This document shows positions 16,597 through 59,062 of a stretch of 64,000 nt of DNA, piece by piece. The position numbers were made by a program, and so were the translations under genes. The notes beneath the pieces are model-generated. The model made no database searches. It saw only the letters and a program-made list of their open reading frames with translations, and was not told the origin of the DNA. Source of the stretch: Pseudomonadales bacterium (lineage in GTDB: Bacteria > Pseudomonadota > Gammaproteobacteria > Pseudomonadales > GM7GCV1); assembly GCA_965222065.1 (NCBI GenBank), contig OZ244933.1:1912538-1976537 (forward strand), given 5' to 3'. Each line of letters starts with the position of its first letter. Position 1 is the stretch's first letter.

Positions 16597-16658
16597 ATTT
16601 ATAGATTCTCCAGCCCACAAAAATTTATAACCCATTGAAATTTATGTGTTTTTCGTTT

Positions 16659-16674
16659 TGGCATGCTATTTGTA
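16659..16674 (+). promoter_or_regulatory. Candidate sigma-54 (-24/-12) promoter TGGCAT-N5-TTGTA
   Basis: TGGCATGCTATTTGTA compared with consensus TGGCAC-N5-TTGCW. The GG is correctly placed. The -12 element reads TTGT rather than TTGC. It lies 38 nt upstream of the ATG at 16712, with a GAGGG RBS in between. Confidence 0.4.
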
Positions 16675-16711
16675 TAAGTGACGTGCAAATTAGCCAATTG
16701 AGGGAAATACA

Positions 16712-17089: not shown

Positions 17090-17129
17090 AACGGCTTCTG
17101 GTTTTCATAAAAATAGGGCGAAAAAGAAG

Positions 17130-17813: not shown

Positions 17814-17820
17814 AGCTGCT

Positions 17821-19796: not shown

Positions 19797-19798
19797 AA

Positions 19799-21376: not shown

Positions 21377-21390
21377 GGTATGAATTTTCT

Positions 21391-21750
21391 ATGTACGATG
21401 AACCAGAACTTTTTTCAGAAAGTATTTCCAGGAAGTTCATCAATGATTTTGGTTTTGTGAAATATCTTTCTTTGATTGAGTTATTTTTACTTGAATTGGA
21501 AGAAAAAACTGAAAGCATAGAAAAAGCAATGGATGATGAAAATATGGACGGTGTTAGAAAAATTGCTCATTCATTAATCGCTTCATCTAAAGCTGTTGGA
21601 ATGATTCAGCTTTCAAAAAAATTTCAAGATATACAAGAAGTCGCAGGGATTGGTAATGCAAGTCAAACTTATAACGAAATACGCGAAATGCTATTTTTAA
21701 AAGATGAGTCTTTAAATGAGTTGCATAATTTCTTGGCGACTCAAAAGTGA
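21391..21750 (+). CDS. Histidine phosphotransfer (Hpt) protein
   Basis: 119 aa, helical. 'VRKIAHSLIASSKAVGMIQL' matches the Hpt 'HxLKGSSxxxG' motif. Lies 14 nt downstream of the hybrid kinase. Confidence 0.75.
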   Translation: MYDEPELFSESISRKFINDFGFVKYLSLIELFLLELEEKTESIEKAMDDENMDGVRKIAHSLIASSKAVGMIQLSKKFQDIQEVAGIGNASQTYNEIREMLFLKDESLNELHNFLATQK

Positions 21751-21767
21751 TAGGGGTTTGCCCCTAT
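21750..21767 (+). terminator. Hairpin directly after the Hpt stop codon (possible operon terminator)
   Basis: ATAGGGG-TTTG-CCCCTAT, a 7-bp perfect stem. No downstream T-run, so intrinsic-terminator status is uncertain. Confidence 0.3.
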
Positions 21768-22017
21768 CCAGTAGCGATGTTTGTTAATTCAAGCGTTTCA
21801 ACAAAATCAATACTAGAAGTTGGAAATATCTATCTGCATGGTTTTTTGCAGCATGTTTAAAATTTTGCTGTTTTATATCTATCCTTGAACATCGTCTATG
21901 TATTTCGTTTCTAATTTTCTATAGGCATATTTCAAATAGCTTTTTTATTTTTTACCTTTTTGGCAAAGACGAAAGGCTAAAAGCTTTGAAGAGGGTTATT
22001 AATATTAGTTTCTTTTG

Positions 22018-22131
22018 GTATCAATAAATCACCGATTTATGATGCATCTAAATGCTATCCTAATTGGTATCAAAAATTTATCTAATTGACTATTTGATAC
22101 TATCATAATATGATACCCCGATAAATGATAC
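22018..22131. repeat. Array of five TGATAC/GTATCA half-sites upstream of the serine recombinase gene
   Basis: GTATCA at 22018-22023 and 22067-22072. TGATAC at 22095-22100, 22111-22116 and 22126-22131. Extended contexts TTGGTATCAA(T/A)AAAT and A(T)TTGATAC(T/C). The array ends 19 bp before the ATG at 22150. Confidence 0.6.
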
Positions 22132-22149
22132 TATCTATCGGGAGCCCTT

Positions 22150-22734
22150 ATGTCACGTACATTTGCATACTGTCGTGTATCTACGACAGAACAGAATACA
22201 GATAACCAAATTCAAGCTATTTCAGCAGCAGGATATGATATTGATCCTAATAGGATTGTCTCTGAATCTATTTCAGGTTCTGTACAAGCTTTAAAGCGTC
22301 CAAAATTCAAAACTCTTGTAGAGCACCAGCTAGAGCCCAGTGATTGCTTAGTGGTGCTCAAGCTAGATCGTTTAGGGCGAGATAATATCGATGTCCAACA
22401 AACAGTTCAGATGTTGGCAGACAGGTCGGTTAAACTCGTTTGCTTAGATTTACCTGTATCGGATCTATCAAGTTCTGAAGGAAAGCTCATGTTGCAAATG
22501 TTTTCGGCTTTCGCAGAATTTGAGCGAAATAGAATTAGAGAACGCACTCTAGAGGGGCTGAGAAGGGCTGAGAGCGAAGGTAAGAAACTAGGAAGGCCAA
22601 AGGCTGTAAAAACAACAAAAGCGGTGCAGAGAGCAAAAGAAGAAGGTCTAAGCCAATCAAGAGTAGCAGCTAAGCTTGGTCTTGGAATAGCAACTGTAAA
22701 AAGACATTGGAATGTCAAGGAAGAAGCATTGTGA
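22150..22734 (+). CDS. Serine recombinase (resolvase/invertase family)
   Basis: 194 aa. 'FAYCRVSTTEQNTDNQ' holds the catalytic Ser. 'LVVLKLDRLGRD' and 'SAFAEFERNRIRERT'. C-terminal HTH 'SQSRVAAKLGLGIATVKR'. Confidence 0.92.
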   Translation: MSRTFAYCRVSTTEQNTDNQIQAISAAGYDIDPNRIVSESISGSVQALKRPKFKTLVEHQLEPSDCLVVLKLDRLGRDNIDVQQTVQMLADRSVKLVCLDLPVSDLSSSEGKLMLQMFSAFAEFERNRIRERTLEGLRRAESEGKKLGRPKAVKTTKAVQRAKEEGLSQSRVAAKLGLGIATVKRHWNVKEEAL

Positions 22735-23972
22735 AGAATGATGAACGCAGGGCACCCTTTACAAAGTTCAATTACGCCCTTGAAGTTAAATCCCCTGTTT
22801 TTGATAAATATGTTGATGATTTATTTGCACGGTTAAATATCACTCACCAAAAGCAAGCAAGGGCGAGAGCGCTCCGAGCAATCCTTTTAAACCTGATATT
22901 TAGTTTTTATGATTCGGTAGGTGTTTACAGGACAACATCATATACGCCCTGTAAAAGAGAAAATCCTTTTTCCATTGGGCAAAGAGCACTTTGCTCAGTA
23001 CTGGATCTTTTAGAGAGTAATAAATATATCCATCAGGCAATCGGTGACAAAACAAAGGATACGATAACAACGATTAAATTTTGTGACTCTCTTAGAGAGG
23101 AGCTAAGAGAAAATAATATTCTCGCTTATTGGGAAATGCCTGGTGGCTTGATACTTACATCAAAAGGAGACCCAGTCGTTCTTAAAACTAAAAAAGACAA
23201 AGATAATAATGAGAATGGCCGAACGATTGATTATGAAGACAGTGCCTATACAAGGAGAGTAAGAAAAGGTCTAAAGGAGTATCAGAGCTTCATGCAGGAA
23301 TATGAAATCTGGCTTGAGTATGAAAATGGGGAGATGAGTGAGCTACCAGAGTTTTCAGTTAAAAGGACTTTTAACAACTCATGCTTTAGTCAAGGCGGGA
23401 GAATCTCAGGTTATTGGGTATCAATACCAAAAGGAGAGAGGAAGTTCTTAAGAATTGAAGATGAAAAATGTAAGGAATATGACCTAGAGGCTAGTGGACT
23501 TAATTTTTTATATCGAAGAGTTACTGGTAAGCCATGTCCAAATAAAGAGCCCTATGCTGCTGAGTTTAAGGGAAAACAGATTCCTAGAAAATTTAGTAAG
23601 CTTTATCTGAATGTTGCTCAGAATACAAAGAAAAATGGAATGCATAATGCTTACATGGAAGAATTAGAAAAAAGAGCTCAAAAAAAAGAATTTAATTCAC
23701 TGGAGCTGAGCTGGAGCGATTTTTGTAGTGCCATCGAATCCAAGCATAAACCTATCCTAGATTATCTGTACCAACCAAAAATAGGAATGGAGACTCAATG
23801 GTGTGAGTCTGAGTTTGTTTTTATTTGTTTGGGTAAACTGATAAATGAAGGGATTCCAGTATTGCCCGTATATGATTCTTTTATAGTCAGGGAATTAGAC
23901 TTTGATAAAACGAAAAAACTAGTTAGTGATACGTTAGAACAGAATATGGAGGATTACCTTATAGCAGTCTAA
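22707..23972 (+). CDS. Uncharacterised island protein (possible replication/initiator-type protein)
   Basis: 421-aa ORF whose track start is TTG. An in-frame GTG at 22731 overlaps the recombinase stop (GTGA) and is an equally likely start. Motifs 'FSQGGRISGYWVSIPKGERKFLRIEDEKCKEYDLEASGLNFLY' and 'IPVLPVYDSFIV' are noted. No firm family assignment. Confidence 0.5.
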   Translation: MECQGRSIVKNDERRAPFTKFNYALEVKSPVFDKYVDDLFARLNITHQKQARARALRAILLNLIFSFYDSVGVYRTTSYTPCKRENPFSIGQRALCSVLDLLESNKYIHQAIGDKTKDTITTIKFCDSLREELRENNILAYWEMPGGLILTSKGDPVVLKTKKDKDNNENGRTIDYEDSAYTRRVRKGLKEYQSFMQEYEIWLEYENGEMSELPEFSVKRTFNNSCFSQGGRISGYWVSIPKGERKFLRIEDEKCKEYDLEASGLNFLYRRVTGKPCPNKEPYAAEFKGKQIPRKFSKLYLNVAQNTKKNGMHNAYMEELEKRAQKKEFNSLELSWSDFCSAIESKHKPILDYLYQPKIGMETQWCESEFVFICLGKLINEGIPVLPVYDSFIVRELDFDKTKKLVSDTLEQNMEDYLIAV

Positions 23973-24190
23973 AGATACCCCTACTACGTAGGAGGAATAT
24001 AGTAGTTAGAAGGGGGGGGGTAGGTTATTGTTATTGAAGAAATGTATGAAAGGGAAACAGTATTAGGAGAGGGTTTCACCCCTCCAATTAGAGAGACGTT
24101 TCTCAAAAATATCTGTTTATGTGTTCAACCAACCTAGTTGATACAAGCCTGAGTATCTCAGAATTCTAAAATATCGTCTTTAGTTTAAGA

Positions 24191-25354
24191 CTATGCTGAT
24201 AATTCCAGAGAATTTGTCCAATTTTCAAATTCTTTATCAATCGACCCTGCTTTAACTATTAGATATTTATCATGTGTTTTATCACTTATGTTTTCGGCTA
24301 CTTTTTCTAAATCAACAGGCCTATTGTGAAAACTATTTTTTAATTCCTCCAATATATAGCAGATCATATAGTCTTCTAAGTAGAGGTCTAGAGGTCGTTT
24401 TTTTCTTGCTTCAATAAAAAGTTCAGCTATTGCTCTACTACCTGCTTTAGTATCGCTGTAGGTGCTGATGCTTTCATCTACTCTTCTTACCAATAGATCC
24501 CGGTACTGTAGAAGTTTTCCCTGAAGCTTGTCGATTTTTGCGTACTTTTTATTGAGTGTATCCGTCGCCTCTTTTAGAGCTTTGATTGAATTAGGAAATT
24601 TCATAGGCTGTGAAGTATCGTCGACCTCAATAACAGCATCGATAAGACTGAGGATTGTAAAAGCTTTGTTTTTGACTAAATTTAGTATGGAGTCATTAAA
24701 ACAAGTCATCCTATGCGGACGGTGTAATCCTATTGAGCCAATCCCGCTTCCTTTAGGAGAGATATCAAGGTCTTCATACAAAGCGGGAATATTTCCCATG
24801 TATGGAAACCAGCTAGAGCAGATGTACTTGTCTATAAAATTAGCTGCTCTTTGTGACAGCTCTGTAGATGTTTCTATTAATTTCAGAAAATCATTACTCA
24901 GTGTGTAGTCGCCAAAGGTTGAATTGGGATACAACCAAAGATAGAACTTTGAATAGTTGAGTTCGATTGTATTTTCGAGGTTTAAGAGGCGTAACTGGCT
25001 GTCTAGTGTTTTAGAGAAGTATTCCATCCTCCTGTAGTGCTTGTCTAAAACATAGCTTTTATGCATCTGCTCAGAACGTCGTGTAGTAAGTTCTAATGTC
25101 CATAGAGCCAAAAGTCCGCCAAGCATCCAAAAAGGGAATTTGTATTTATTTAAAAAGTTATCAAAACACTCAGAACGAAAGCATGGTTTGGAAAAATCGC
25201 TGGCAGTAATTGCAATAAAAGATGAAAGGCATATGACTAGTGATGCATAAAATAAAAACTTGATTAACTGTTTTCCGGGCATCAGTAATTTACCTAACCA
25301 GACTAGAGTTGCGAGAACTCCTATAAGTAAAACAATTAAAGCTATCCAAAGCAT
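24191..25354 (-). CDS. Uncharacterised membrane-anchored island protein
   Basis: 387 aa. About three N-terminal hydrophobic helices ('LWIALIVLLIGVLATLVWL', 'FLFYASLVICLSSFIAITA', 'FWMLGGLLALWTL') followed by a ~290-aa soluble helical region with no motif I recognise. Confidence 0.55.
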   Translation of the reverse strand: MLWIALIVLLIGVLATLVWLGKLLMPGKQLIKFLFYASLVICLSSFIAITASDFSKPCFRSECFDNFLNKYKFPFWMLGGLLALWTLELTTRRSEQMHKSYVLDKHYRRMEYFSKTLDSQLRLLNLENTIELNYSKFYLWLYPNSTFGDYTLSNDFLKLIETSTELSQRAANFIDKYICSSWFPYMGNIPALYEDLDISPKGSGIGSIGLHRPHRMTCFNDSILNLVKNKAFTILSLIDAVIEVDDTSQPMKFPNSIKALKEATDTLNKKYAKIDKLQGKLLQYRDLLVRRVDESISTYSDTKAGSRAIAELFIEARKKRPLDLYLEDYMICYILEELKNSFHNRPVDLEKVAENISDKTHDKYLIVKAGSIDKEFENWTNSLELSA

Positions 25355-25370
25355 TGTAATTCCCTTGTTT

Positions 25371-27074
25371 TTAAGAATTCACTAAAGTCATTCCTTTCCA
25401 GCCATCCTTAAGATGTGAAATGTCTAGCCCTTTAAAAATCAGCTTTTCCTGTTCCTTGTAATAGCTAGGCATTAACTTTTCTAGGTGGTGATCTTCATGA
25501 CGGTGAATATAGCCTGACATATCGATGTCTGAACTTACCTTATGACCTACCATTACTTCGACAATTTTTTGATTTAGTGAACAGTATTCGAGAGCTTGAG
25601 TTATATAGGTTGGGCGAAAGCTATAAAGAGTCTTTTTCTGCTCTATAAAATCTTCAGGCAAATAACCACTTCTGTATCTTTGGTTCCACCACTTACTAGC
25701 TTGATCGCTAGCTTTTCTTATTCCTCCAGTGATGCCTCCAAGCATTCTTTTATGCCCCAAGCGAAACATTTCGGAAACATATTCATCAAATCCAAGTTCA
25801 AGAATGGCTGGATGTAAAGGTATTGCTCGTCTAGCTGACTCAGTTTTGATTTCAAGCCCATCTTCTGGATCATCGGTTATTAGTAAACACTTAACTCCAG
25901 CATATTCTTTGACATCAGAAATTCTTGCTTGTACCAATTCACCTGGTCTGGCTCCAGTATAAAGGCACATGATTGGTAGCCACCAATGAGAAGCAGTTGT
26001 TGTTTTTCTTTGGTGATAAGTGCTGTCGCTAACGTAAAGGTCACTGCCAAAGATCGTATTTAGATCTTCAATTGTGAAGTCTTTAGTAGGCTGACTATTA
26101 GTTTGAATAGTTACCGTATGAAAAGGATTTTGTGATACTAACTCCTTGGCACATAACCATTTATAAACAGTCCTAGCAAATCCAAGTTTTTCACTGATTG
26201 ACCTATTGCTTAAACATTCGGAAGCAGGCAAATCCATATCAATTAACTGCTTAGCATCTAGACCTGGATATTTATGTGATCTATGGGTAGGAATTTTCTT
26301 TAGGCTATCTCGGAAGTTACAAGCGTCATCATATTTAACTTTATCAACTGGAATATCGCCTAAGATAAAAACTAAATCTCTAAAAGTAGTTCTATATTCA
26401 TTTTTTGTAGTTTCTCTAATTGGCCTACCAGCTTCCTTATTGATAAGAAAATCTTCTATTACTTCCGAAAGCTTAGGTTTGTCTTTATTAGGAGAATTAG
26501 AAGATATTACTTTTTGGGGTGAAATCGATAATTGAGAAGATTCATTTTCCATCTCTTGAATTGAGCTTTTTGCATGTAAACTAATCAGCTCATCAAGTGC
26601 TTTGCCCTTTCCTGGAAGTTTGTATCCTATCTCGCCTAAATCAATTTCTAGGCTATTCAAACTGTTTTCAAAAGCTTCTCTAGCCTCTGCAGTATCTGGT
26701 TCAACTTGATATTCAATAGCCTCCCGTAATCCTCGATATGATTTGAGCCAGGCATCTAAATGTCTTTTGTAGGCATCTATATGCGTAAGGCTAGAAAAGC
26801 GGCCTTTTATTGGATCAGGAGGCTGGCTGGAGTAAAGCTGTTTAAGCTCAGCCATAACTTCTTGGTAATTATCGTCTGTTACTGCTTTCACTTTTTGAAT
26901 CCATCCTTCGTAGGCTTCTAATTTTCTGACAGCTTCATAGAGATTGTCAGTTTTGAGAGATCTTAGTATCTCCCTTTGGCCTAGTTTCTTTCTTAGCTTT
27001 GTTGGAATCTGCCAGCGAAAGTAATAGATATTGCCGCGTTTTTGTAGCAGTTTTAGTAGCAAAATTAGTAGCAA
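25371..27074 (-). CDS. int: Tyrosine recombinase/integrase
   Basis: 567 aa. N-terminal 'GNIYYFRWQIPTKLRKKLGQREILRSLKT' is the arm-binding type common in island integrases. Catalytic region 'TGARPGEL', 'ESARRAIPLHP', 'LYSFRPTYIT', 'MVGHK' and 'YIH'. No ATG at the 5' end; TTG starts at 27074 or 27062. Adjacent to tRNA-Leu. Confidence 0.88.
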   Translation of the reverse strand: MLLILLLKLLQKRGNIYYFRWQIPTKLRKKLGQREILRSLKTDNLYEAVRKLEAYEGWIQKVKAVTDDNYQEVMAELKQLYSSQPPDPIKGRFSSLTHIDAYKRHLDAWLKSYRGLREAIEYQVEPDTAEAREAFENSLNSLEIDLGEIGYKLPGKGKALDELISLHAKSSIQEMENESSQLSISPQKVISSNSPNKDKPKLSEVIEDFLINKEAGRPIRETTKNEYRTTFRDLVFILGDIPVDKVKYDDACNFRDSLKKIPTHRSHKYPGLDAKQLIDMDLPASECLSNRSISEKLGFARTVYKWLCAKELVSQNPFHTVTIQTNSQPTKDFTIEDLNTIFGSDLYVSDSTYHQRKTTTASHWWLPIMCLYTGARPGELVQARISDVKEYAGVKCLLITDDPEDGLEIKTESARRAIPLHPAILELGFDEYVSEMFRLGHKRMLGGITGGIRKASDQASKWWNQRYRSGYLPEDFIEQKKTLYSFRPTYITQALEYCSLNQKIVEVMVGHKVSSDIDMSGYIHRHEDHHLEKLMPSYYKEQEKLIFKGLDISHLKDGWKGMTLVNS

Positions 27075-27158
27075 ACCTCATATCGATAATGATGAGTTTG
27101 CTCAGAAAATCAATAAGGTACTGACTTATAAGAGGATTCTTTGTCAGTGGAATTGCTA

Positions 27159-27245
27159 TGGTGCCCAGGAGAGGACTTGAACCTCCACGACCTTGCGGTC
27201 ACCAGCACCTGAAGCTGGCGCGTCTACCAATTCCGCCACCTGGGC
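27159..27245 (-). tRNA. tRNA-Leu (anticodon CAG), type II with long variable arm, CCA encoded
   Basis: Reverse complement reads GCCCAGGTGGCGGAATTGGTAGACGCGCCAGCTTCAGGTGCTGGTGACCGCAAGGTCGTGGAGGTTCAAGTCCTCTCCTGGGCACCA. Acceptor stem GCCCAGG/CCTGGGC. Anticodon stem CCAGC/GCTGG with loop TTCAGGT. T-loop GGTTCAAGTCC. Confidence 0.93.
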
Positions 27246-27292
27246 AAGGTGTCTCGAAGGCCTGACAACAAGCCCTCGGAAAAGGGACGCGC

Positions 27293-27321
27293 ACTTTACT
27301 CAGAGCCTGTTTTTTTGTCAA
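27293..27321 (-). promoter_or_regulatory. Candidate sigma-70 promoter for tRNA-Leu (TTGACA-N17-TAAAGT)
   Basis: On the minus strand TTGACA (27321-27316) and TAAAGT (27298-27293) are separated by 17 nt. The pair lies ~45 nt upstream of the tRNA 5' end. Confidence 0.4.
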
Positions 27322-27389
27322 TCGCGGGATAGAAAAAACCCGCGGGAAACGCAAGTAAGCTCAGGTTGTCCACCAGCGAGTGGCAAGGC

Positions 27390-27866
27390 TTAACTTTTTC
27401 CGGACTCCAGCCTGGCACGAGATTCCTGATAGGCCTGGTAGTCGGGTACCTTGGTGATCAGGCTTCGGTTAAACATGGGGCTGCTCACCAGCAAATCAGC
27501 GGTGGCTTCGTTACATGCTACGGGGATGTTCCACACAGCCGCCAGCCGCAGAAGGGCCTTGACGTCCGGATCGTGGGGCAGGGGTTCAAAGGGGTCCCAG
27601 AAAAAAATCAGGACGTCAATCTTGCCTTCGGCAATGGCCGCCCCAATCTGCTGGTCACCGCCCATGGGGCCGGATAAGAATTTGCCAATATCCGTACCCA
27701 ACTCAGCTTCCATGAGACTGCCTGTTGTCCCCGTGGCAGAAAGCTTGTGCCGGGTGAGAACTTCCTTGTTCGCCAGTGCCCACGTGAGCAAGTCTTGCTT
27801 GCGGTTGTCGTGGGCAATCAGGGCGATGTTTTTTTCAATAGCTATTTCGCGATCTTTGTACTTCAT
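27390..27866 (-). CDS. mgsA: Methylglyoxal synthase
   Basis: 158 aa. 'IALIAHDNRKQDL', 'LSATGTTG', 'GPMGGDQQIGA', 'IDVLIFFWDP' and 'PHDPDVKALLRLAAVWNIPVA' are near-identical to E. coli MgsA motifs. Confidence 0.95.
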   Translation of the reverse strand: MKYKDREIAIEKNIALIAHDNRKQDLLTWALANKEVLTRHKLSATGTTGSLMEAELGTDIGKFLSGPMGGDQQIGAAIAEGKIDVLIFFWDPFEPLPHDPDVKALLRLAAVWNIPVACNEATADLLVSSPMFNRSLITKVPDYQAYQESRARLESGKS

Positions 27867-27906
27867 GATTTATTAATCACATCAATCGCAAACAGACTGC
27901 AGGTGA

Positions 27907-28908
27907 CTAGATTTGACTGGCCAGTACTCCTGCCGTATCGAGCATGCGATTGGAGAAACCCCATTCGTTGTCATACCAGCCCAGTACTTTAACCTGTTTG
28001 CCGATCACTTTGGTCTGTTTTAAGTCGGCAATAGAGGAGGCAGGGTTATGGTTGAAGTCGATGCTGACCAGGGGAAGTTCGTTAATTTCCAGCACGCCCT
28101 TGTATTTCTCGGCACCGGCTTTCAGTGCAGCGTTAATTTCTTCAACGCTGGTCTCTTTTTTGGCTTCAAAGGTCAGGTCGAGCAGGGAGACATTGATCAC
28201 CGGAACGCGAATGGCCAGGCCATCCAACTTGCCGGCAAGTTCCGGAAGCACCAGGCCAACCGCAGCGGCAGCACCGGTCTTGGTAGGAATCAATGACTGG
28301 GTAGCCGAACGTGCCCGGTAAACATCACTGTGGTAAACGTCAGAGAGGTTCTGGTCGTTGGTGTAGGCATGGACGGTGTTGGCCAGGCCGCACTCAATGC
28401 CGACGGCATCATTGAGGGTCGCTGCAATAGGTGCCAGACAGTTCGTGGTACATGACGCATTGGACACCACGGTGTGCTCGGGTTTAAGCACATCATGATT
28501 GACGCCGTAAACGATGGTGGCATCCACGTTTTTGCCCGGCGCGGAGATCAGTACTTTTTTGGCGCCCGCTTCAATGTGTGCTGAGGCTGTTTCCTTGCTG
28601 GTAAAAATGCCGGTACATTCCATGACCAGGTCAACGCCTTCTGATGCCCAGGGAAGATTGGCAGGAGAGCGTTCGCTAAAGCACTTAATCTTGTGATTGC
28701 CGACCTGGATGGTTTGGCCATCGGTCGAGACATCAAGGCCCAGTGTTCCGTGAACCGAGTCGTATTTCAGCAGATGGGCATTCAGAGTGGGATCACCCAG
28801 ATCGTTAATGGCGACAATTTCGAAATTGGTTTCGTTTTGGCGCTCAAGCCAAGCCCTCAGGACATTTCTTCCGATGCGGCCAAAGCCATTAATGGCTACC
28901 TTGGTCAT
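27907..28908 (-). CDS. gap: Glyceraldehyde-3-phosphate dehydrogenase
   Basis: 333 aa. '[16 protein letters not shown]', active site '[12 protein letters not shown]' and '[11 protein letters not shown]'. Confidence 0.95.
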
Positions 28909-29049
28909 GTATTACCCTCTAACAGTCTAAAAGCGCAACTATGCTACATTTTCTTTGCGTAATTGCAATATAGTTACATAAATGTATGAGATATTCCGCG
29001 CATAAAATCGCCATTGCGCCGAATGCCTTACTCACCTAAACTCCCCCCC

Positions 29050-29270
29050 AACCTGCTTGAGGTGCCTGAACCGGATACTGCCTTGTATTCGTTGGTCAGG
29101 TTAAACGGGAACTGTGGTGATTCTGTGTCAGAAGTTAAGGTAGACACAGCCCAATCCACGGCTGCCCCCGCAACGGTGATGGACGTTTTCAACTTTTATA
29201 GATAGCGCCCTAAGCCCGATACCGGCCTGCAAAGTAGCGAGCTTGAACTCCCTGTCCTGATAGGGAGTTC
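29050..29270 (+). promoter_or_regulatory. Cobalamin (B12) riboswitch leader of btuB
   Basis: Conserved core 'TTAAACGGGAACTGTGGTGA' and 'GCTGCCCCCGCAACGGTGA'. B12-box-like 'AAGCCCGATACCGGCCTGC' at 29212-29230. Followed by a 9-bp hairpin GAACTCCCT/AGGGAGTTC (29245-29270). Located upstream of a TonB-dependent receptor and cob genes. Confidence 0.8.
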
Positions 29271-29413: not shown

Positions 29414-31276
29414 ATGAATAACAATAAATTTAAAGTGGCGTTGACCACTGCCATCTTCTCTTTACCTGTCGCTGCACAGGAATCAACTGCAACTCAACCC
29501 GAAGGACTGGAAGAGGTGGTCATCACTTCCAGCCGGGTCGAACAACCGCTTCGTGAAGTGGCAACCTCAGTCTCCGTGATCACCCGCGAGGACTTGGAGC
29601 TTAAGGGTTATACCTCGCTGGCCGATGTGCTCAGAACCCAGACCAGCATTGGCGTAAGTAACCAGGGGGGCACCGGGGCGGTGACCAGTCTGCGTATCCG
29701 CGGTGAAGAAGGCTACCGAACCCTGGTCATGATTGATGGGGTGGATATGTCTGACCCTACTGGAACCCAGGTTGGTCCGCTGGTCCAGAATCTGGCCAAT
29801 ACCCAGGACATTGAACGTATTGAAATCCTGCGCGGGGCACAAGGCTTCCTTTATGGTGCGGATGCTGGTGGAGTCATCAATGTGATTACCCGAAGTGGCA
29901 CGGAAGGTCTTTCCGGAAATGCGTCCGTAGAGACCGGTGCGGACGGAACCATGAATCTTGGCGGTAATGTACGCGGGGGCACGGATAACCTGGATTTTTC
30001 CCTGGCGGTGACCGATACATCCACAGATGGGTTTAATTCGCGATCGGACGACACGGTTCTGCAAGATGATGACGGTGCAGAAAATACCAGTATTCATTTT
30101 AAGGGTGGCATGAAAATCAGCCCGGACCTGTCGGCGACACTGGTTTACCGGGATATCGACGCGGTCAGTGAATATGACAGCTGCTATACCGCCACGTCGA
30201 CACTCTCCAATGACTGCCTGGGCGAAACCAGGCATGAAACTGCCAGGCTCAGCCTGGACTATGTGACCGGCGTGGTTGGCCACACATTTGCCTATGCTGT
30301 CACGGACGTCCAGCGCGATTATTTCACTGAAAATACATTAAGTTACGGCACTGAGGGTAAGACCTCCCAGGCGGAGTATGTTGGCAACCTGCAAATTTCG
30401 GATAGCCAGCAGTTGGTGTTTGGGTCGGATTACCAGAAGGATGAAATCTCGGCGACCGGCAGCGAGTCCGACCAGGACCAACTGGGCGTTTTTGCTGAGT
30501 ATCAAAGCGGGTTTAACGAGGTTGTATTTGTTACCGCGGGTCTGCGCTACGACGATAATTCGGATTTTGGCAAGCACATCAGTTACCGGGCTTCTGCTGC
30601 CTTCGTACAGGATTTGGCCTCTGGCGACAGTATTAAATACCGAGCCACCTACGGCACCGGCTTTCGGGCGCCCAGTCTCAGTGAAGTTGCCTACAACGCA
30701 GGCCCCTTTGGCAATGGTGTTTCCCTGAAAGAAGAAACTAGCAGGGGATATGACCTGGGTGTGGATTACCTGATGCAAAATGGAGCGGAAATTCAGGTGA
30801 CTTACTTCGATCAGGAAATTGATAACGAAATCTATTTTGATCTGGTGACCTTTGGCGGCTATCTGCAAACCGGGGACCGGTCGACTTCCCGGGGTGTGGA
30901 AACCGCTGTTGAGTACCCGGTCAGCTCGCAAGTAAGCCTGATTGCCAATCACACCTATAACAAGACAGAAGACAGCACAGGAGACATTCGGGTGCGTCGC
31001 CCCAGGCATTTGGCCAACCTGGGAGTAGAGTTTGCGCTGCTGGACGCGCGCCTGAATATCCTTGCCAATGTGCGTGTGGCGCGCGATGCCGTGGATAATG
31101 GATCCGTGCCGCTGGATGACTACGAAGTGATTGATCTCAGTGCCAATTATCGATTGGCCAATGGTCTGGAGGCCTTTGGCCGCATTGAAAACCTGGCCGA
31201 TGAAGACTACGAGGAGGTGACGGGTTATAACACCCGCGATCGTTCGTTTTATGCGGGTATGCGCTACCGCTTCTAG
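29414..31276 (+). CDS. btuB: TonB-dependent vitamin B12 receptor
   Basis: 620 aa with signal peptide 'FSLPVAAQE' and TonB-box/plug 'EEVVITSSRVEQPL'. 'IEILRGAQGFLYGADAGGVINVIT'. C-terminal 'AGMRYRF'. Riboswitch upstream. Confidence 0.88.
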   Translation: MNNNKFKVALTTAIFSLPVAAQESTATQPEGLEEVVITSSRVEQPLREVATSVSVITREDLELKGYTSLADVLRTQTSIGVSNQGGTGAVTSLRIRGEEGYRTLVMIDGVDMSDPTGTQVGPLVQNLANTQDIERIEILRGAQGFLYGADAGGVINVITRSGTEGLSGNASVETGADGTMNLGGNVRGGTDNLDFSLAVTDTSTDGFNSRSDDTVLQDDDGAENTSIHFKGGMKISPDLSATLVYRDIDAVSEYDSCYTATSTLSNDCLGETRHETARLSLDYVTGVVGHTFAYAVTDVQRDYFTENTLSYGTEGKTSQAEYVGNLQISDSQQLVFGSDYQKDEISATGSESDQDQLGVFAEYQSGFNEVVFVTAGLRYDDNSDFGKHISYRASAAFVQDLASGDSIKYRATYGTGFRAPSLSEVAYNAGPFGNGVSLKEETSRGYDLGVDYLMQNGAEIQVTYFDQEIDNEIYFDLVTFGGYLQTGDRSTSRGVETAVEYPVSSQVSLIANHTYNKTEDSTGDIRVRRPRHLANLGVEFALLDARLNILANVRVARDAVDNGSVPLDDYEVIDLSANYRLANGLEAFGRIENLADEDYEEVTGYNTRDRSFYAGMRYRF

Positions 31277-42256: not shown

Positions 42257-42408
42257 CGTTCGCCACGCTTATTTAAGTCTTGCAAAAGGCGCGCCGAACG
42301 CCTAGAATCGCGCGCCCCTGAGATCGGGACTCAACCCCCGATCCCAGCTCCTTGCCTCACCGCGCCCAAAGGGTTGATGGGAGGCTGTTTAATCCACGAG
42401 GAGAAACA

Positions 42409-42900
42409 ATGAGACATTACGAAATCGTGTTCATGGTCCACCCGGACCAGAGCGAGCAAGTGCCGGCTATGATCGAGCGCTACAGCAAGGCCATCACCGA
42501 CGACAAGGGTACTGTACACCGTGTCGAAGACTGGGGTCGCCGCCAGCTTGCTTACCCAATCCAGAAAATTCACAAGGCGCACTACGTCATGCTGAACGTA
42601 GAGTGCACCAAGGGTGCTCTGGAAGAATTAACCACCAACTTCCGATACAACGACGCGGTTTTGCGCAATCTGGTTATTGCCCGTGAAAAGGCCGAGCTTG
42701 AGGAATCCCTCATCATGAAAGCCGAGCGCGAAGAAAAAGAGCGTGATTCAGCCCGGGCCGCCGCTGCCGAAGCACGAGCTGCTTCTGATCAGGCCGCCGC
42801 AGCAACGGAAGACAACAGTGATAATGACGAGGCTGATGAAGCCGAGGAAGCAAACGAAGAGCAGGCTTCCGAAGAAACTGCAGATGAGGAGGACAAGTAA
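42409..42900 (+). CDS. rpsF: 30S ribosomal protein S6 with long acidic C-terminal tail
   Basis: Start set at '[18 protein letters not shown]' (ATG 42409, with RBS GAGGAG upstream). The track ORF start at 42352 is upstream of the conserved N-terminus. Confidence 0.93.
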
Positions 42901-43127
42901 TGGCCAGATTTTCACGTCGCCGCAAATTCTGCCGCTTCACAGCTGAAGGCGTAGAAAGTATTGATTACAAAGATCTCGATACGTTGAAGCAATACATTGG
43001 TGAGAACGGCAAGATCGTTCCCAGCCGCATCACCGGTACCAAGGCACGTTACCAGCGTCAGTTGGCCACAGCGATTAAACGCGCGCGCTACCTGGCACTG
43101 CTGCCTTACACCGACAACCACAAATAA
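42900..43127 (+). CDS. rpsR: 30S ribosomal protein S18
   Basis: 75 aa. '[28 protein letters not shown]...[11 protein letters not shown]'. TAATG overlap with rpsF. Confidence 0.95.
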
Positions 43128-43666: not shown

Positions 43667-43742
43667 TTGGTACGAAAGGCTAGAATAGTCTCGCTATGGC
43701 TTGGGGGAATTCCCGGGCCCAGGTCAAAGGCGGAATGTTTGC

Positions 43743-44444
43743 ATGACTTCTGAAGTTCGCGTCCGGACGCGTGTAAGACCCAAAAACGGGCGCAAGTTTA
43801 TTCTGGTGGCCAACTCCAAGGGCGGAAGTGGTAAAAGTACCCTGGCGACCAATCTGGCAGCAGCCTATGCAAGGCTGGGATTTGATACCTCGCTGGTTGA
43901 CTGTGACCAGCAGCGTTCATCAATGGCCTGGATGGAAATGCGACCGCCCATTGCCCCGCCGATTACCGCCGTTAGCGGTTGTGCCGAGGTCGGGGTCCCC
44001 CAGCTGGACTGGGCGTTGCGGGTTTCACCTGATACCAGTCGTGTTATTGTTGACAGTCCCGGAGCAATGCGTGATCAGCGCCTGTACGATACCCTGCAAA
44101 AGGTCGATTATATTCTGGTGCCTGTATTACCCTCAGCAGTCGATATCCGGGCGACTACCGAGTTTTTGAAGGAAGTTTATATTTCGCCGGGCTTCCGGAC
44201 ATCAAACAAGCGACTTTTTGTGATTGGCAATCGAGTGGACAAGCGCAACAAATATTTTCATCAGCTGAGCCGGTTTCTTAAGCGTATGGGTTCCCACGAA
44301 GTGATGACCTTGCCAGACTCCTATGTGTTTTTGCGATGTGCCGACGAAGGTATTGGTGTTGCCGATCTGCATGATTCGCCCCGTTACGAAGAACCACGTA
44401 CAGCCATGCTTAAGATTATTAACGCGATCGAAACCAGGATATGA
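43743..44444 (+). CDS. ParA/MinD-family P-loop ATPase (orphan, no parB/parS seen)
   Basis: Deviant Walker A 'ANSKGGSGKSTLATNLA', 'VIVDSPG' and 'VIGNRVDKRN'. ATG at 43743 preferred over the TTG at 43701. Stop overlaps the dnaB start (ATGA). Confidence 0.8.
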   Translation: MTSEVRVRTRVRPKNGRKFILVANSKGGSGKSTLATNLAAAYARLGFDTSLVDCDQQRSSMAWMEMRPPIAPPITAVSGCAEVGVPQLDWALRVSPDTSRVIVDSPGAMRDQRLYDTLQKVDYILVPVLPSAVDIRATTEFLKEVYISPGFRTSNKRLFVIGNRVDKRNKYFHQLSRFLKRMGSHEVMTLPDSYVFLRCADEGIGVADLHDSPRYEEPRTAMLKIINAIETRI

Positions 44445-45844
44445 CTGAAAACGTCGTCAATATCTCGGACTCCGAGCCATCTCCCCGTCGTGGCTCAGGC
44501 CCCCTGCCGCATTCGATAGAAGCCGAGGCCGCCGTGATTGGTGGACTTATGCTGGCCGGTGACAAAGCCTACGACACCATTGCCAGTCTGGTGCAAAAAG
44601 AAGATTTCTATGATGCCCGGCACCAGCAAATTTTTGATTCGCTTGGCCGCCTGGCTGAAGAGCAGCAACCCTTCGATCCCATTACCATCTGCGATGAGCT
44701 CAACAGCCGTAAACAGCTAAATAAGGCCGGGGGAGCCAATTACGTCTCTGAACTGGCAGCGAACACCCCAAGCGCGGCAAATATCGAGGCCTATGCGCGT
44801 ATTGTTAGTGAACAGGCCACGCTTAGAAAACTGATAGGCGCGGCCAGTGACATTATCAGCCTTAGCCGAAATCCCGACGGGGCTTCGGCAGATTCCCTGT
44901 TATCTTCAGCGGAACAGAGCTTTCTGGAGATTTCGGAAGGCCGGCCGCGTGATAATGGATTTATCAATGTCGACAGTCTGCTCAAGGGAGCGATTGATCG
45001 AATTGAGGAGCTTTACGAGTCGGGCAATACCATCACCGGCATTACCACTGGCTTTACCGACCTTGATGAAAAAACTTCGGGCTGGCAGCGAGCCGACCTG
45101 GTTGTGATCGCTGCCCGTCCCTCCATGGGTAAAACCGCCCTGGCACTGAACATGGTGGAGTCAGCGTTGTTTTCATCCGACAAGCCGGTACTGGTTTTTA
45201 GCCTGGAAATGCCTGCAGATGCCCTGGTGATGCGCTTGCTCGCGTCCATCGGCAAGATACAGCTCAAGCATATCCGCGACGGCAACCTCACCGGAGATGA
45301 TTGGGACAAGCTCGCCAAGGCTGCGGCCAAGCTCAAGGGCAGGAAACTGTTTATCGATGATACGCCCGGGTTAACGCCTACAGACGTGCGTGCTCGTGTG
45401 CGCCGGCTGACTAGAGAGCAGGGCACTAATCCCGCCATGGTGATGCTCGATTATCTCCAGTTAATGACCACGGCGAGCCCAACAGAAGGCCGGGTCCAGG
45501 AAATCTCGGAAATTTCCCGCTCCATGAAACAGGTGGCCCGGGAATTTGACTGCCCGCTGTTGGCGCTATCACAGCTCAACCGGGGAGTGGAGCAACGTCC
45601 CAACAAGCGGCCAATGAATTCTGACCTTCGGGAATCCGGGGCCATCGAGCAGGACGCCGACGTCATCGTATTTATCTATCGCGATGAATACTACAACGAA
45701 GACAGTCAGGACAAAGGCATCGCTGAAATCATTATTGGTAAACAGCGTAACGGTGAAATAGGCACCGTGCGTTTGCAGTTCCAGGGTGAATACACCCGCT
45801 TTAATAATCTGGCGCCGGAATTCCGGGCACCGGAACACGACTAA
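44441..45844 (+). CDS. dnaB: Replicative DNA helicase
   Basis: 467 aa. 'PHSIEAEAAVIGGLM', Walker A 'ARPSMGKTALALN', 'LSQLNRGVEQRPNKRPMNSDLRESGAIEQDAD' and 'IIIGKQRNG'. Confidence 0.95.
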   Translation: MTENVVNISDSEPSPRRGSGPLPHSIEAEAAVIGGLMLAGDKAYDTIASLVQKEDFYDARHQQIFDSLGRLAEEQQPFDPITICDELNSRKQLNKAGGANYVSELAANTPSAANIEAYARIVSEQATLRKLIGAASDIISLSRNPDGASADSLLSSAEQSFLEISEGRPRDNGFINVDSLLKGAIDRIEELYESGNTITGITTGFTDLDEKTSGWQRADLVVIAARPSMGKTALALNMVESALFSSDKPVLVFSLEMPADALVMRLLASIGKIQLKHIRDGNLTGDDWDKLAKAAAKLKGRKLFIDDTPGLTPTDVRARVRRLTREQGTNPAMVMLDYLQLMTTASPTEGRVQEISEISRSMKQVAREFDCPLLALSQLNRGVEQRPNKRPMNSDLRESGAIEQDADVIVFIYRDEYYNEDSQDKGIAEIIIGKQRNGEIGTVRLQFQGEYTRFNNLAPEFRAPEHD

Positions 45845-55823: not shown

Positions 55824-56459
55824 TTACAGGTCCAGCTGTTTGCGAATTTCCGCCAGCTTGCCCAGTCCTTCCTCTCTGGATACTTTGTTATCCGACTTGT
55901 CCGACCGTTCCCGGTCATCTTCCAGTTGTGGCACCTTGACTGTTTCGCCACGACTGATTTCCCCAAGCACGGTCTGGTAATTTCCGCGAAAGACGGGCAG
56001 GGCAAACTGCTCGGGGGTCGTGGATAAAAAATACCAGTCGGAGCGTCGCCCCGCCTCATAGACAGCGGGGTGGGACCATTCATGTTGTGCCTTGGGGCTC
56101 GGGGCGTTGCACGCTTCGACATAAGCCTGGTGAACGTCCGGAGCCCGGCAATCCTGTTCGGCACATCGAGCCAGCATCTGGTGCAGGGTAGGCAAATATT
56201 CCTGTTCTTCAATAATACGGCGAGTCGCCTGGAGCACCGTGTTTGCGCTATAACTCTTGAGGCTTTCAAACCAGAGTTTTTTCGCCTGGTTGAGCAATTC
56301 GCGATCATCCGAATAGGCTTTATAAAACTGGTTATGAAAATTGATTCGAAACAGGGTAAAGACCTGATTGATGGTTTCGATCAGGTCTGCCTGGTTATGG
56401 CTGTTCACTGGCCGGGAAGACTCAGGTTGCCCAGCTTCGGTCAGAGAGGTCTTCGACAA
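55824..56459 (-). CDS. Replication-protein-P-like (phage lambda P family) protein
   Basis: 211 aa. 'FTLFRINFHNQFYKAYSD...AKKLWFESLKSYSANTVLQATRRIIEEQEYLPTLHQMLARC' resembles my recollection of the lambda P family core. Overlaps the upstream DnaT-like gene by 38 nt. Confidence 0.4.
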   Translation of the reverse strand: MSKTSLTEAGQPESSRPVNSHNQADLIETINQVFTLFRINFHNQFYKAYSDDRELLNQAKKLWFESLKSYSANTVLQATRRIIEEQEYLPTLHQMLARCAEQDCRAPDVHQAYVEACNAPSPKAQHEWSHPAVYEAGRRSDWYFLSTTPEQFALPVFRGNYQTVLGEISRGETVKVPQLEDDRERSDKSDNKVSREEGLGKLAEIRKQLDL

Positions 56460-57543
56460 TGCTACGGTCTCTTAAGGAGTTTTCAGAGAGGTTTCGTTGC
56501 TGCCATTGCTTCTTGGCAAATTGCAGAAACAGCGTATTCCAGGATGGGCGCATTTCGTTGCGATCACGCCAGTACATAACAAATTCAGGCACCAGCTCCT
56601 GGGCAAATTTTGTGTCTATACGGGCTATGCGAAGCACGTCGTAGACGTCATCGCTGGGTTGCCAGTCAGCGGTCATCACCGTTGGGCGACTCTCGTTTTT
56701 TAATGTGTGCTGGTATTCCGCCCACTGCCGTTTCACATGATTAATAAAACGGGCATTCCAGGTGTTGCACTGGTCTCCTTTCTCTGACCAGTAAAGAATA
56801 AATTCGGGAATGGCATCTTCAATAAAGTTTCGATGAATACCCGCCTGGATTTCCAGAATCTCCAGGGCATCAGTCGAGGGCCGCCACTCGCGGGACATGG
56901 GTTTGGGTTCATTTTCCCGGGGTTGGTCCCAGCTTGAGGTATCCATTTTCCTGCTCTGGCTTTGGCGGGCCTCGAAATCACGCCATTTACGCAGTACATG
57001 GCTGACAAAGCGATTGCCCCAGGAATGCCTGGCTTCGCCCCGTTCACTCCAGTAATGGACAAATTCGGCTATCTGGTCATGGGCAAAGTGATTGGGCACT
57101 CCTTGCTGGGCCAGTAACCGCAAGGCATGCTCATCCGGACGCCAGTTGGGTGCCATGGCACCGGCCTGGGGTTTGGCAGGGTTGTGAGGCTCCGGTGAGT
57201 TGCTTACGGCAGGACGAGCGGGCTGGCTGTCTTCGTTAAAGGCATAACGGATCTCGCCGGACTCCCCCAGAGGTGCCGAGCTAATTAGAATGACACCCTG
57301 TTGGCGGAGGTTTTCGGCAATTCGCTGAATGTCAGTGGCTTTCCAAAAAGGTAACAGGGCCAGTAAATCCTGTGCTTTCAGGCTGTGCCATTGATATCGA
57401 CCACTGGCCCTGGCACTGCCCAGTGCACTCTCCATCGCGCCCTGATCGCTTAGGCACTGCAACAGAATGGCTTCTTCCAGACCCAGGGTGCTGGCCAGTT
57501 CGATAGAAAAAGCAATTTGGCGACTTGGGATCAGAAAGGACAT
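56422..57543 (-). CDS. Protein with three tandem DnaT-like DNA-binding repeats
   Basis: 373 aa with three ~54-aa repeats. 'WRPDEHALRLLAQQGVPNHFAHDQIAEFVHYWSERGEARHSWGNRFVSHVLRKW' (56983-57144). 'WRPSTDALEILEIQAGIHRNFIEDAIPEFILYWSEKGDQCNTWNARFINHVKRQW' (56722-56886). 'WQPSDDVYDVLRIARIDTKFAQELVPEFVMYWRDRNEMRPSWNTLFLQFAKKQW' (56503-56664). Confidence 0.6.
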   Translation of the reverse strand: MSFLIPSRQIAFSIELASTLGLEEAILLQCLSDQGAMESALGSARASGRYQWHSLKAQDLLALLPFWKATDIQRIAENLRQQGVILISSAPLGESGEIRYAFNEDSQPARPAVSNSPEPHNPAKPQAGAMAPNWRPDEHALRLLAQQGVPNHFAHDQIAEFVHYWSERGEARHSWGNRFVSHVLRKWRDFEARQSQSRKMDTSSWDQPRENEPKPMSREWRPSTDALEILEIQAGIHRNFIEDAIPEFILYWSEKGDQCNTWNARFINHVKRQWAEYQHTLKNESRPTVMTADWQPSDDVYDVLRIARIDTKFAQELVPEFVMYWRDRNEMRPSWNTLFLQFAKKQWQQRNLSENSLRDRSIVEDLSDRSWAT

Positions 57544-57697
57544 AGGGTTAGAAAATTGATCGATTCAAAACTGAATTCAAGAGTCTGCATGCTACACTCT
57601 GGTCGAAGTCTTGGCACTATCTGTGTGACGGCCTGGAACGCTGTGTAACATCTGAGAGCCAGATTAACGGCCAAATCCCATATTCAAATCAATAAAA

Positions 57698-59062
57698 ATG
57701 GCGAAATCCAAAACTGCTTTTGTTTGTACAGACTGTGGCGCTGACTACAGTAAATGGGCTGGTCAGTGTACGGCCTGTCAGGCCTGGAACACAATTTCAG
57801 AAGTTCGCCTGGGAAGCAGCAAACGAACCGCTGGATCCGGACGGGCCGGTTATGCCGGTGCCGTAAACAGCCTGGCCCAGCTTCTCTCCGAGGTTGAGTT
57901 TTCCGAGCTGGAGCGGCGCAATACCGGCTTTAATGAGCTGGACCGGGTCCTGGGTGGCGGCCTGGTGCCTGGCTCCAGCATCCTGATTGGTGGTGATCCA
58001 GGCGCGGGTAAAAGCACCTTGTTGCTCCAGGTGATGTGTGCATTGTCGGAGCAGGCAGAAACCCTGTATGTCACCGGGGAAGAATCGCCACAACAAGTGG
58101 CAATGCGTGCCCGACGCCTGGGCCTGAAGACAGACAAACTCAAAATACTTGCTGAGACGTCCCTGGAAAACCTGATGGCCCAGGTGGAAAACGATCGCCC
58201 GTCGATCATGGTGGTGGACTCCATACAGGTGATGTACAGGGAAGATATTACCTCGGCTCCGGGCAGTGTGAGCCAGGTACGTGAATGCGCTGCAGATCTC
58301 GTACGCTTTGCCAAACAAACCGAAACGGTGCTGTTCCTGGTGGGGCATGTGACGAAAGAGGGCAACCTGGCTGGTCCCCGTGTGCTGGAGCATATGATCG
58401 ACTGTTCCCTGATGCTGGATAGTTCCAGTGATTCCCGCTATCGCATGTTGCGCAGCCAGAAAAATCGCTTTGGCGCGGTTAATGAACTGGGGGTGTTTGC
58501 CATGGCGGACACTGGCCTGAAAGAAGTCAGCAATCCCTCTGCGATCTTCCTGACCCGGGCCGAGGAAGATTCTCCCGGCAGCCTGGTGACCGTCATCTGG
58601 GAGGGAACCCGTCCGCTGTTGGTTGAATTGCAGGCATTGGTAGACGATACACATTACAACAGTCCCCGGCGCGTGGTTGTCGGCCTGGACCAAAACCGAC
58701 TGGCCATGTTGCTTGCCGCTTTGCATCGACATGCCGGCATCGCCCTGTCAGACCAGGATGTCTTTGCCAATGTTGTCGGCGGCGTCAAGGTGACCGATAC
58801 CAGTGCCGATGTTCCCTTGCTGGTCGCCGCCTTGTCCAGCTTGCGCAGTCGGCCTTTGCCAAAGGATCTTGTGGCGTTTGGTGAAGTGGGGTTAACCGGC
58901 GAAATACGTCCCGTTGCCAATGGCCAGGAGCGCATTCGGGCTGCTGCCATGCACGGATTTAAACGTGCCATTGTCCCTTATGCCAATAAGCCCAAAAAGC
59001 CTGTTGATGGCATAGAGGTCATTGGTGTGAAAAATCTGTCCGAGGTTCTGGACGCGATATAA
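57698..59062 (+). CDS. radA: DNA repair protein RadA/Sms
   Basis: 454 aa. Zinc finger 'FVCTDCGADYSKWAGQCTACQAWNT', Walker A 'GGDPGAGKSTLLLQ', 'KNRFG' and a Lon-like C-terminus. Confidence 0.96.
   Translation: MAKSKTAFVCTDCGADYSKWAGQCTACQAWNTISEVRLGSSKRTAGSGRAGYAGAVNSLAQLLSEVEFSELERRNTGFNELDRVLGGGLVPGSSILIGGDPGAGKSTLLLQVMCALSEQAETLYVTGEESPQQVAMRARRLGLKTDKLKILAETSLENLMAQVENDRPSIMVVDSIQVMYREDITSAPGSVSQVRECAADLVRFAKQTETVLFLVGHVTKEGNLAGPRVLEHMIDCSLMLDSSSDSRYRMLRSQKNRFGAVNELGVFAMADTGLKEVSNPSAIFLTRAEEDSPGSLVTVIWEGTRPLLVELQALVDDTHYNSPRRVVVGLDQNRLAMLLAALHRHAGIALSDQDVFANVVGGVKVTDTSADVPLLVAALSSLRSRPLPKDLVAFGEVGLTGEIRPVANGQERIRAAAMHGFKRAIVPYANKPKKPVDGIEVIGVKNLSEVLDAI

Follow-up and report, generated by a model that had tools for sequence, protein, structure and literature searches.

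A 64,000-nt stretch of the chromosome of an uncultured Pseudomonadales bacterium (GenBank assembly GCA_965222065.1, contig OZ244933.1, positions 1,912,538 to 1,976,537; hereafter the window) carries two overlapping genes, whose products of 373 and 211 aa are related to replication initiators and to phage helicase loaders, respectively. The pair is the ortholog of dopC and dopE, described by Brezellec et al. (2017, Genome Biol Evol 9:1561; PMC5509034), and represents an already known system, not a new one. In our preferred reading, to which we assign a probability of about 75%, dopC-dopE is the initiator-and-loader cassette of a lambdoid phage that became fixed in Cellvibrionales-type chromosomes, where it would load the replicative helicase DnaB by means of DopC as an adaptor on single-stranded DNA (ssDNA). 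While the identity of the pair comes directly from the comparisons presented here, DnaB loading and ssDNA binding are proposed by analogy. The initial annotation of this DNA had suggested a domesticated phage-derived module for helicase loading or replication restart. That suggestion agrees with dopC/dopE of PMC5509034, although the annotation did not recognise that the system had already been named and published.

Brezellec et al. were looking for the replacement of dciA in the Cellvibrionales and in some Oceanospirillales. They identified a resident lambda-P-like gene, which they named dopE, as the single gene tracking the loss of dciA. It was always preceded by dopC, encoding an O-like helix-turn-helix (HTH) protein with a domain of the DnaT C-terminal type. 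No iterons were present and the origin mapped elsewhere, as reported for 13 genomes, and four classes of gene context were described (PMC5509034). The window pair shares with the published one the gene order and orientation, the HTH and DnaT-type dopC upstream, the chromosomal context, the lack of iterons and the clade. Nothing essential differs; the window adds an orthologous pair from an uncultured lineage, whose genome measures 2.5 Mb. The window DopE is 45% identical, at 100% coverage, to the "replication protein P" of Cellvibrio japonicus (P0177; E = 6.7e-52), the species whose DopE is the reference in PMC5509034, and an alignment of 15 diverse members of the family contains 42 invariant columns. 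We identify the pair as dopC/dopE because this orthology comes together with a dopC upstream, a non-prophage context, the absence of iterons and purifying selection. The text of PMC5509034 does not contain the triplication of the DnaT domain as the norm, the conserved tail of DopC, the mis-call of the DopE start, or the HTH and DnaT phage proteins, rather than lambda O, as relatives.

DopC has 1020 homologs, the named ones being from Porticoccaceae/Cellvibrionales, and relatives of DopE were confirmed at 556 genome loci when one genome per species was scanned. The counts of synteny and gene context given here refer to the best 80 of these 556 loci, all of which belong to Cellvibrionales-type bacteria (Cellvibrio, Pseudomaricurvus, Marinimicrobium, Gilvimarinus, Porticoccaceae, Halioglobus and similar). 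The gene immediately upstream of dopE, on the same strand, is a dopC homolog in 77 of the 80 loci, from many genera; the remaining three run into the end of their contig. A stop/start overlap like that of the window recurs in most orthologous loci. In the window radA does adjoin the pair, as the initial annotation also remarked, but this context does not characterise the family: only 22 of the 80 loci have radA as a divergently oriented neighbour, and those of Cellvibrio, Marinimicrobium and Gilvimarinus do not, a lineage-specific pattern in line with the context classes of PMC5509034. The ratio of nonsynonymous to synonymous substitution rates (dN/dS) is 0.06-0.13 for dopC and 0.14-0.17 for dopE, with low nonsynonymous change against saturated synonymous change, and both genes are under strong purifying selection.

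These data bear on two other explanations of the pair. First, it could be a decaying remnant of a cryptic prophage without any cellular role, as the membership of both proteins in phage families (PHROG matches and phage relatives) might suggest. However, order and overlap are conserved in 77 of the 80 loci, the dN/dS values are low, the reading frames are intact, the GC content of the locus is genome-typical, and the Pfam-annotated stretches about 10 kb to either side hold no phage structural, lysis or integrase genes. We consider a remnant extremely unlikely. Second, the module may be kept mainly as an anti-phage device, a high-affinity loader withholding DnaB from phages, which was raised as a possible selective advantage in PMC5509034. 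The family is, however, clade-wide and vertically inherited, and no defence-island context appears in the Pfam annotation (no PADLOC scan was made), so that we regard such a principal function as very improbable.

The resemblance of the 211-aa protein to phage P proteins, seen in the initial annotation, is supported by several comparisons. DopE matches PHROG_109 ("P-like helicase loader") with an E-value of 4.8e-12. Using hhalign, it matches the P protein of Pseudomonas phage TC7 with 97.1% probability (E = 6e-11), and the TC7 protein itself matches the Pfam family PF06992 (Phage_lambda_P) at 5e-31. DopE aligns to nearly the entire PF06992 profile (positions 3-159 of 162; E = 0.0015), and 12 of the 15 family members match this profile, the best at 2.1e-12. 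A Foldseek search of the PDB ranks three lambda P chains first, all from the DnaB-lambda P complex 9OA1 (E from 1.4e-4 to 2.8e-3, about 200-210 columns).

Lambda P consists of two helical domains with a "lasso" element at each terminus, both of which stay disordered as long as DnaB is not bound (9OA1/9OA2, PMC12661323). The N-terminal lasso, domain I (residues 1-29), binds DnaB, and the C-terminal helix inserts at the docking helix-linker helix (DH-LH) interface of neighbouring DnaB subunits, thus opening the ring (PMC12661323). DopE has the same four-domain layout, with a disordered N-terminus, an all-helical two-domain core at about residues 19-169, a disordered linker at 178-192 and a helix at 195-208 in its model. 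The hhalign alignment with lambda P is colinear over ~175-210 positions, including the C-terminal helix. By its position, the conserved N-terminal motif of DopE may be the analogue of lambda P's N-terminal lasso. On the other hand, the identity between the two proteins is about 18-22%, DopE is chromosomal and vertically inherited, and its partner is not of the lambda-O type.

Both open reading frames (ORFs) are present in the window as initially annotated and overlap by 38 nt, which likely means that their translation is coupled. Several public gene calls give DopE as a 194-aa protein that starts at an internal GTG and does not overlap dopC. Residues 1-11 of the 211-aa form include the motif SKTSxTAAGQ, which is kept across the 15 diverse members. 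Because this motif is conserved upstream of the 194-aa start, we take the TTG start of the 211-aa form, together with the overlap, to be correct.

In the AlphaFold2 (AF2) model of DopC, built from 23 homologs (mean predicted local distance difference test score, pLDDT, 82.8), a winged helix is followed by a disordered linker, three three-helix bundles and a tail of low confidence. The winged-helix-like N-terminus proposed earlier is therefore recovered as a high-confidence domain, at residues 14-102, and its best folds are winged helices of replication initiators. The leading Foldseek matches in the PDB are the N-terminal domain (NTD) of staphylococcal plasmid RepA (4PT7/4PQL/5KBJ; probability 0.98-1.0), followed by RepE and DnaD-N. 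DopC also matches the PHROG "replication initiation protein" families 1032, 1408 and 11233, and Pfam HTH_36 was not detected in it. With the full-length model, Foldseek returned matches to the N-domain only and did not retrieve DnaT, probably due to the small size of the bundles and the multi-domain nature of the model. The DnaT assignment of DopC thus rests on sequence, namely on Pfam and on sequence matches to DnaT structures.

Pfam finds three copies of PF17948 in DopC (E = 7.5e-68; 224.6 bits versus a cutoff of 25), as expected from the three tandem DnaT-type repeats of the initial annotation, and the motifs are also as described there: W-[RQ]-P starts at residues 134, 220 and 294, and EF[VI]xYW and [KR][KQ]W are found in every repeat. 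The repeat length of ~54 aa is correct as the span of the motifs (W134 to W187), but the whole domain, delimited with a purpose-built hidden Markov model (HMM) of the repeat, measures about 66 aa and recurs with a period of 74-86 aa. In the window protein the repeats are 29-39% identical to one another. Across species, identity is 59-71% at one repeat position, repeat 2 being the most conserved (71% on average), and 31-36% between different positions. The triplication is ancient and each copy has been kept individually. Three DnaT domains are present in 73 of 78 DopC orthologs, four in three and two in two, and in an exhaustive search the N-domain with three repeats was the commonest architecture (74 among the 150 best cluster representatives). 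The triple repeat is the norm of the family and no peculiarity of the window genome. The four-domain proteins (436-455 aa) are encoded in Cellvibrionaceae/Biformimicrobium genomes (loci L010, L059 and L076), showing that the number of repeats is not absolutely fixed, and those with only two domains at loci from metagenome-assembled genomes (L029 and L037).

In E. coli DnaT, mutagenesis has revealed six residues critical for ssDNA binding: Y127, W128, F135, K133, K143 and R146 (PMC4132743, PMC13377028). We scored the conservation of DnaT residues over 72 DopC orthologs. The equivalent of W128 is invariant in all three repeats, and that of Y127 is either Y or F. For W140, the equivalent never varies in repeats 1 and 3, and 71 of the 72 orthologs have it in repeat 2; K143 is represented by K or R in 69-71 orthologs, depending on the repeat. 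Repeat 1 retains the equivalents of Y127, W128, W140, K143 and R146. In repeat 3 of the window DopC and its closest relatives the K143 equivalent is a leucine (L338; 56530-56532), where 68 of the 72 orthologs have lysine.

The last repeat is followed by a conserved tail in which R358, D368, S370 and W371 are invariant, and its D[RK]SW core is present in 72 of 75 DopC orthologs. HTH-less proteins of about 160-177 aa, consisting of two DnaT domains and the same TRDxSLxExLxDRSWA tail, have their genes in the early region of Mu-like transposable phages. In one of them (locus L089, IMG/VR UViG_2199352012_000202, 3995-4495) the gene adjoins GemA and Mor; in another (locus L093, Logan SRR30360288_59220, 6001-6489) it follows an rve transposase, an AAA_22 ATPase and DUF3164. 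The products of these two genes have 162-166 aa. In E. coli, Mu replication starts from a fork via the PriA-DnaT pathway. The occurrence of the unit in such phages suggests that the DnaT repeats and the tail form a portable adaptor for fork-type helicase loading.

Other phage relatives include the N-domain. Initiator gp50 of Xanthomonas phage HXX_Dennis matches DopC with 98.8% probability in hhalign (E = 4.9e-17) over both the winged helix and the DnaT domain, and this initiator and those of related Stenotrophomonas phages are composed of a DopC-type N-domain and one DnaT domain. Phage initiators of this kind (PHROG 1032/1408; for example, HXX_Dennis gp50 and the "DnaD-like primosome initiator" of Stenotrophomonas phage Suso) are homologous to the N-domain plus DnaT part of DopC. 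They differ from DopC in having a single DnaT domain and no DRSWA tail, and in the example examined a P-like loader is not the next gene downstream. Since phage initiators already join the N-domain to DnaT, while similarity to lambda O went undetected, the DnaT domain was probably inherited from a phage ancestor and not grafted on after domestication. A virus with an HTH and DnaT initiator directly before a P-like loader, the presumed ancestor, was found neither in INPHARED records nor in two non-exhaustive pattern scans of IMG/VR.

We do not endorse a literal derivation of DopC from lambda O. DopC has no match to Pfam PF04492 (Phage_rep_O), hhalign gave a probability of 0.3% against lambda O, and it found no similarity between the DopC profile and the HTH_36 O-like protein of phage TC7; both hhalign tests used single-sequence templates, which limits their sensitivity.

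Comparison with known initiation proteins shows both parallels and differences. E. coli DnaT and DopC share the PF17948 three-helix bundle, the WxP, F-x-x-Y-W and W-x-x-K signature and the residues Y127, W128 and K143. However, DnaT has one C-terminal domain (CTD) per chain and forms filaments by oligomerisation, whereas DopC carries three such domains in one chain. DopC also lacks the N-terminal domain and the PriB-docking linker of DnaT and has the winged helix instead. DopC is thus not a plain ortholog of DnaT: with the NCBIfam equivalog model NF002770 it reaches 15.1 versus 201 bits, at profile positions 90-146 only, and the N-terminal domain is a different one. Bacillus subtilis DnaD and the RepA_N initiators of staphylococcal plasmids resemble DopC in that an N-terminal winged helix is combined with an ssDNA-binding C-terminal region which helps to recruit the helicase-loader complex. 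In contrast, the fold of the DnaD CTD is unrelated to the DnaT-type bundles, the structural E-values are weak (0.14-1.1), and there is no evidence for DnaA binding by DopC.

In the mechanism that we propose, DopE would act as lambda P does. By binding between DnaB subunits, its C-terminal helix, and perhaps also its N-terminal peptide, would open the ring and deliver DnaB onto ssDNA, in place of the presumably missing DciA/DnaC. We infer this because the layout is the same and the C-terminal helix aligns with those of lambda P and TC7 P. DopC would no longer be an origin-binding initiator, since there are no iterons and no skew switch, and may instead serve as an adaptor marking ssDNA, while its winged helix and tail could contact DNA or partners such as DnaA, PriA, DopE and DnaB. 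Together the two proteins might couple helicase loading to unwound oriC DNA, to abandoned forks, or to both.

It is also conceivable that DopC is the active initiator of a secondary, phage-type origin in or near its own gene, comparable to lambda O and ori-lambda. The winged helix of initiator type and the homology to phage "replication initiation proteins" fit this idea. Against it, no iteron array is found in or near dopC, the one DNA repeat in three copies there reflecting the coding of the EFxxYW motif; DnaA boxes are absent from the window, and its GC skew is positive throughout, without a switch. The same result was reached for 13 genomes in PMC5509034, and a secondary origin is in our opinion scarcely credible.

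The serious alternative is that DopCE functions in replication restart only, as a primosome module analogous to DnaT/DnaC that works with PriA at abandoned forks, oriC being served by another factor or by DnaA alone. Domains of the DnaT type are characteristic of the restart protein DnaT, priB is absent from the rpsF-rpsR junction, the related proteins with two DnaT domains and the tail are from Mu-like transposable phages, and radA, which 22 of the 80 loci have as their divergent neighbour, is a recombination-repair gene. Nevertheless, dopE is the single gene that tracks dciA loss (PMC5509034), which points to a general loader, and a lambda-P-type loader acts on any ssDNA presented to it. Moreover, the adjacency of radA is absent in Cellvibrio, Marinimicrobium and Gilvimarinus, and a LexA-type box was looked for in the dopC-radA spacer, the presumed promoter region, and not found. 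A function confined to restart appears unlikely to us. As to where DopC acts, the distribution of dopE, complementary to that of dciA (PMC5509034), speaks for a general role, and the DnaT domains and the Mu-like phage relatives speak for a fork-type role.

The structures of preprimosomes published in 2026 (9ZBT/9ZBU; PMC13377028) may provide a clue to the meaning of the triplication. There the CTDs of DnaT assemble along lagging-strand ssDNA into a helical filament that holds 2 nt per interface, and DnaT filamentation takes the DNA from PriB. By comparison, the three linked bundles of DopC could represent a short, pre-assembled filament of DnaT CTDs for which no oligomerisation is needed, and a filament within a single chain would fit an organism without priB at the usual site. 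A more detailed version, which we offer tentatively and consider doubtful as a whole, is that DopC, with three bundles that are not interchangeable, would grip about 4-6 nt without oligomerisation or hand-off from PriB, its DRSWA tail would dock the DopE-DnaB complex, this single adaptor would serve both oriC and restart in the clade, and Mu-like phages would use a trimmed copy with two DnaT domains and the tail to connect their own forks to the host loader. This reading was found neither in the text of PMC5509034 nor in the later papers searched.

Several observations weigh against the proposed mechanism or the assignments behind it. Taken alone, DopE stays under the Pfam cutoff for PF06992 (18.7 versus 26 bits), and a PDB sequence-profile search with the DopE alignment found no PDB chain, lambda P included. 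In the DopC repeats the equivalents of K133 and F135 are not conserved and that of R146 is retained (as K) in repeat 1 only, and the mode of ssDNA binding may for this reason differ from that of E. coli DnaT. The arrangement of the three bundles relative to one another is not predicted by the model (predicted template modelling score, pTM, 0.33), so that the "mini-filament" is an inference. The precomputed Pfam hits of called genes, which cover most of the 64-kb window, include no DUF721 or IstB/DnaC-type match, a negative that says nothing about the remainder of the ~2.5-Mb genome. Finally, in the searchable literature neither DopE nor DopC has been put to a biochemical or genetic test, and later papers mention DopE only in passing.

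Table 1. Positions of the dopC-dopE pair, its parts and neighbouring features in the window
Feature	Position	Strand	Basis and remarks
dopC, 373 aa	56422..57543	-	ORF; winged-helix N-domain, three DnaT-type domains and conserved C-terminal tail
dopE, 211 aa	55824..56459	-	ORF; lambda-P-like putative DnaB helicase loader
Overlap of dopC 3' end and dopE 5' end, 38 nt	56422..56459	-	ORF coordinates and sequence; likely translational coupling
Divergent dopC-radA intergenic region	57544..57697	.	Presumed promoters
DopC winged helix, residues 14-102	57238..57504	-	Replication-initiator type; AF2 pLDDT 81-95, H-H-E-E-H-H-E-E topology
DnaT-type repeat 1, DopC residues 130-195	56959..57156	-	Repeat HMM; matches 4OU6/4OU7/2RU8/9ZBT, E about 1e-3
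DnaT-type repeat 2, DopC residues 216-282	56698..56898	-	Repeat HMM; best-scoring Pfam stretch, residues 215-280
DnaT-type repeat 3, DopC residues 290-355	56479..56676	-	Repeat HMM; aromatic pair and W140 equivalent conserved
DopC tail, residues 356-373	56425..56478	-	Motif TRDxSLxExLxDRSWA; low pLDDT, predicted disordered; candidate docking peptide
DopE N-terminal motif SKTSLTEAGQ, residues 2-11	56427..56456	-	Conserved in 15 members; pLDDT <50 over residues 1-19
DopE C-terminal helix, residues 195-208	55836..55877	-	AF2; hhalign to lambda P and TC7 P C-termini; putative role by analogy with lambda P lasso
UDG-family ORF, 190 aa	55234..55806		Flank; Pfam UDG over residues 32-182
radA	57698..59062		Flank; divergent from dopC
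dnaB	44441..45844	+	Pfam DnaB 3.3e-33 and DnaB_C 1.9e-105; tblastn versus E. coli DnaB C-terminal domain, 56% identity
rpsF-rpsR junction without priB	42352..43124	+	tblastn with E. coli RpsF and RpsR; no PriB match

The gene pair is flanked, as initially described, by a UDG-family gene and radA, and no prophage genes surround it. According to Pfam, acs, the UDG-family gene, a ferredoxin reductase and panCD lie on one side, and radA, amt, a SPOR protein and a two-component system on the other. The precomputed Pfam annotation of the source contig, a metagenome assembly of 2.53 Mb, shows cellular genes only, across about 1-21 kb, 19.4-64 kb and ~3.5 kb past the end of the window, and Pfam searches with ORFs of the window add to this picture around the pair. 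In the dopC-radA spacer, a scan for the sigma-70 consensus gave no match. The UDG ORF is intact in the window, and near-identical public contigs call only an 80-aa C-terminal piece of it.

The gene of the predicted client of DopE, dnaB, is located about 10 kb from dopCE. The absence of priB from its usual site, a further point of the initial annotation, was borne out: rpsF (42352-42900) abuts rpsR (42900-43124), which is followed by rplI, and no room is left for priB. Between rplI and dnaB there is an ORF (43701-44444; 247 aa, 233 aa as called) for a ParA/MipZ-like P-loop ATPase. Its stop overlaps the start codon of dnaB, and it has the appearance of an orphan ParA-type gene whose translation is coupled to that of dnaB.

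The window is otherwise ordinary apart from a low-GC stretch at ~16000-28000 (37-40% versus 51-56% elsewhere), which ends at tRNA-Leu(CAG) (27159-27245). This stretch includes genes for a resolvase (22150-22734), two ORFs without Pfam matches (22707-23972 and 24191-25354) and a DUF6538 protein (25371-27074), and is probably an integrated genomic island, unrelated to dopCE. Downstream of a cobalamin riboswitch (29045-29244) there are a TonB-dependent receptor (29414-31276) and genes for cobalamin salvage and transport (CobA/BtuR, CobQ-like, FecCD, an ABC ATPase and a periplasmic binding protein).

DopCE has been proposed as the third type of loader for the replicative helicase, after DciA and DnaC/DnaI. 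If it were validated, the view that a dedicated loader is required in every bacterium would gain support. The triple DnaT architecture, the DopC tail, the start of DopE and the phage relatives are testable details that could guide biochemistry. With dnaB, dopCE, radA and the priB-less rpsF-rpsR junction all inside 16 kb, the locus is a clean and compact example, suited to experiments.

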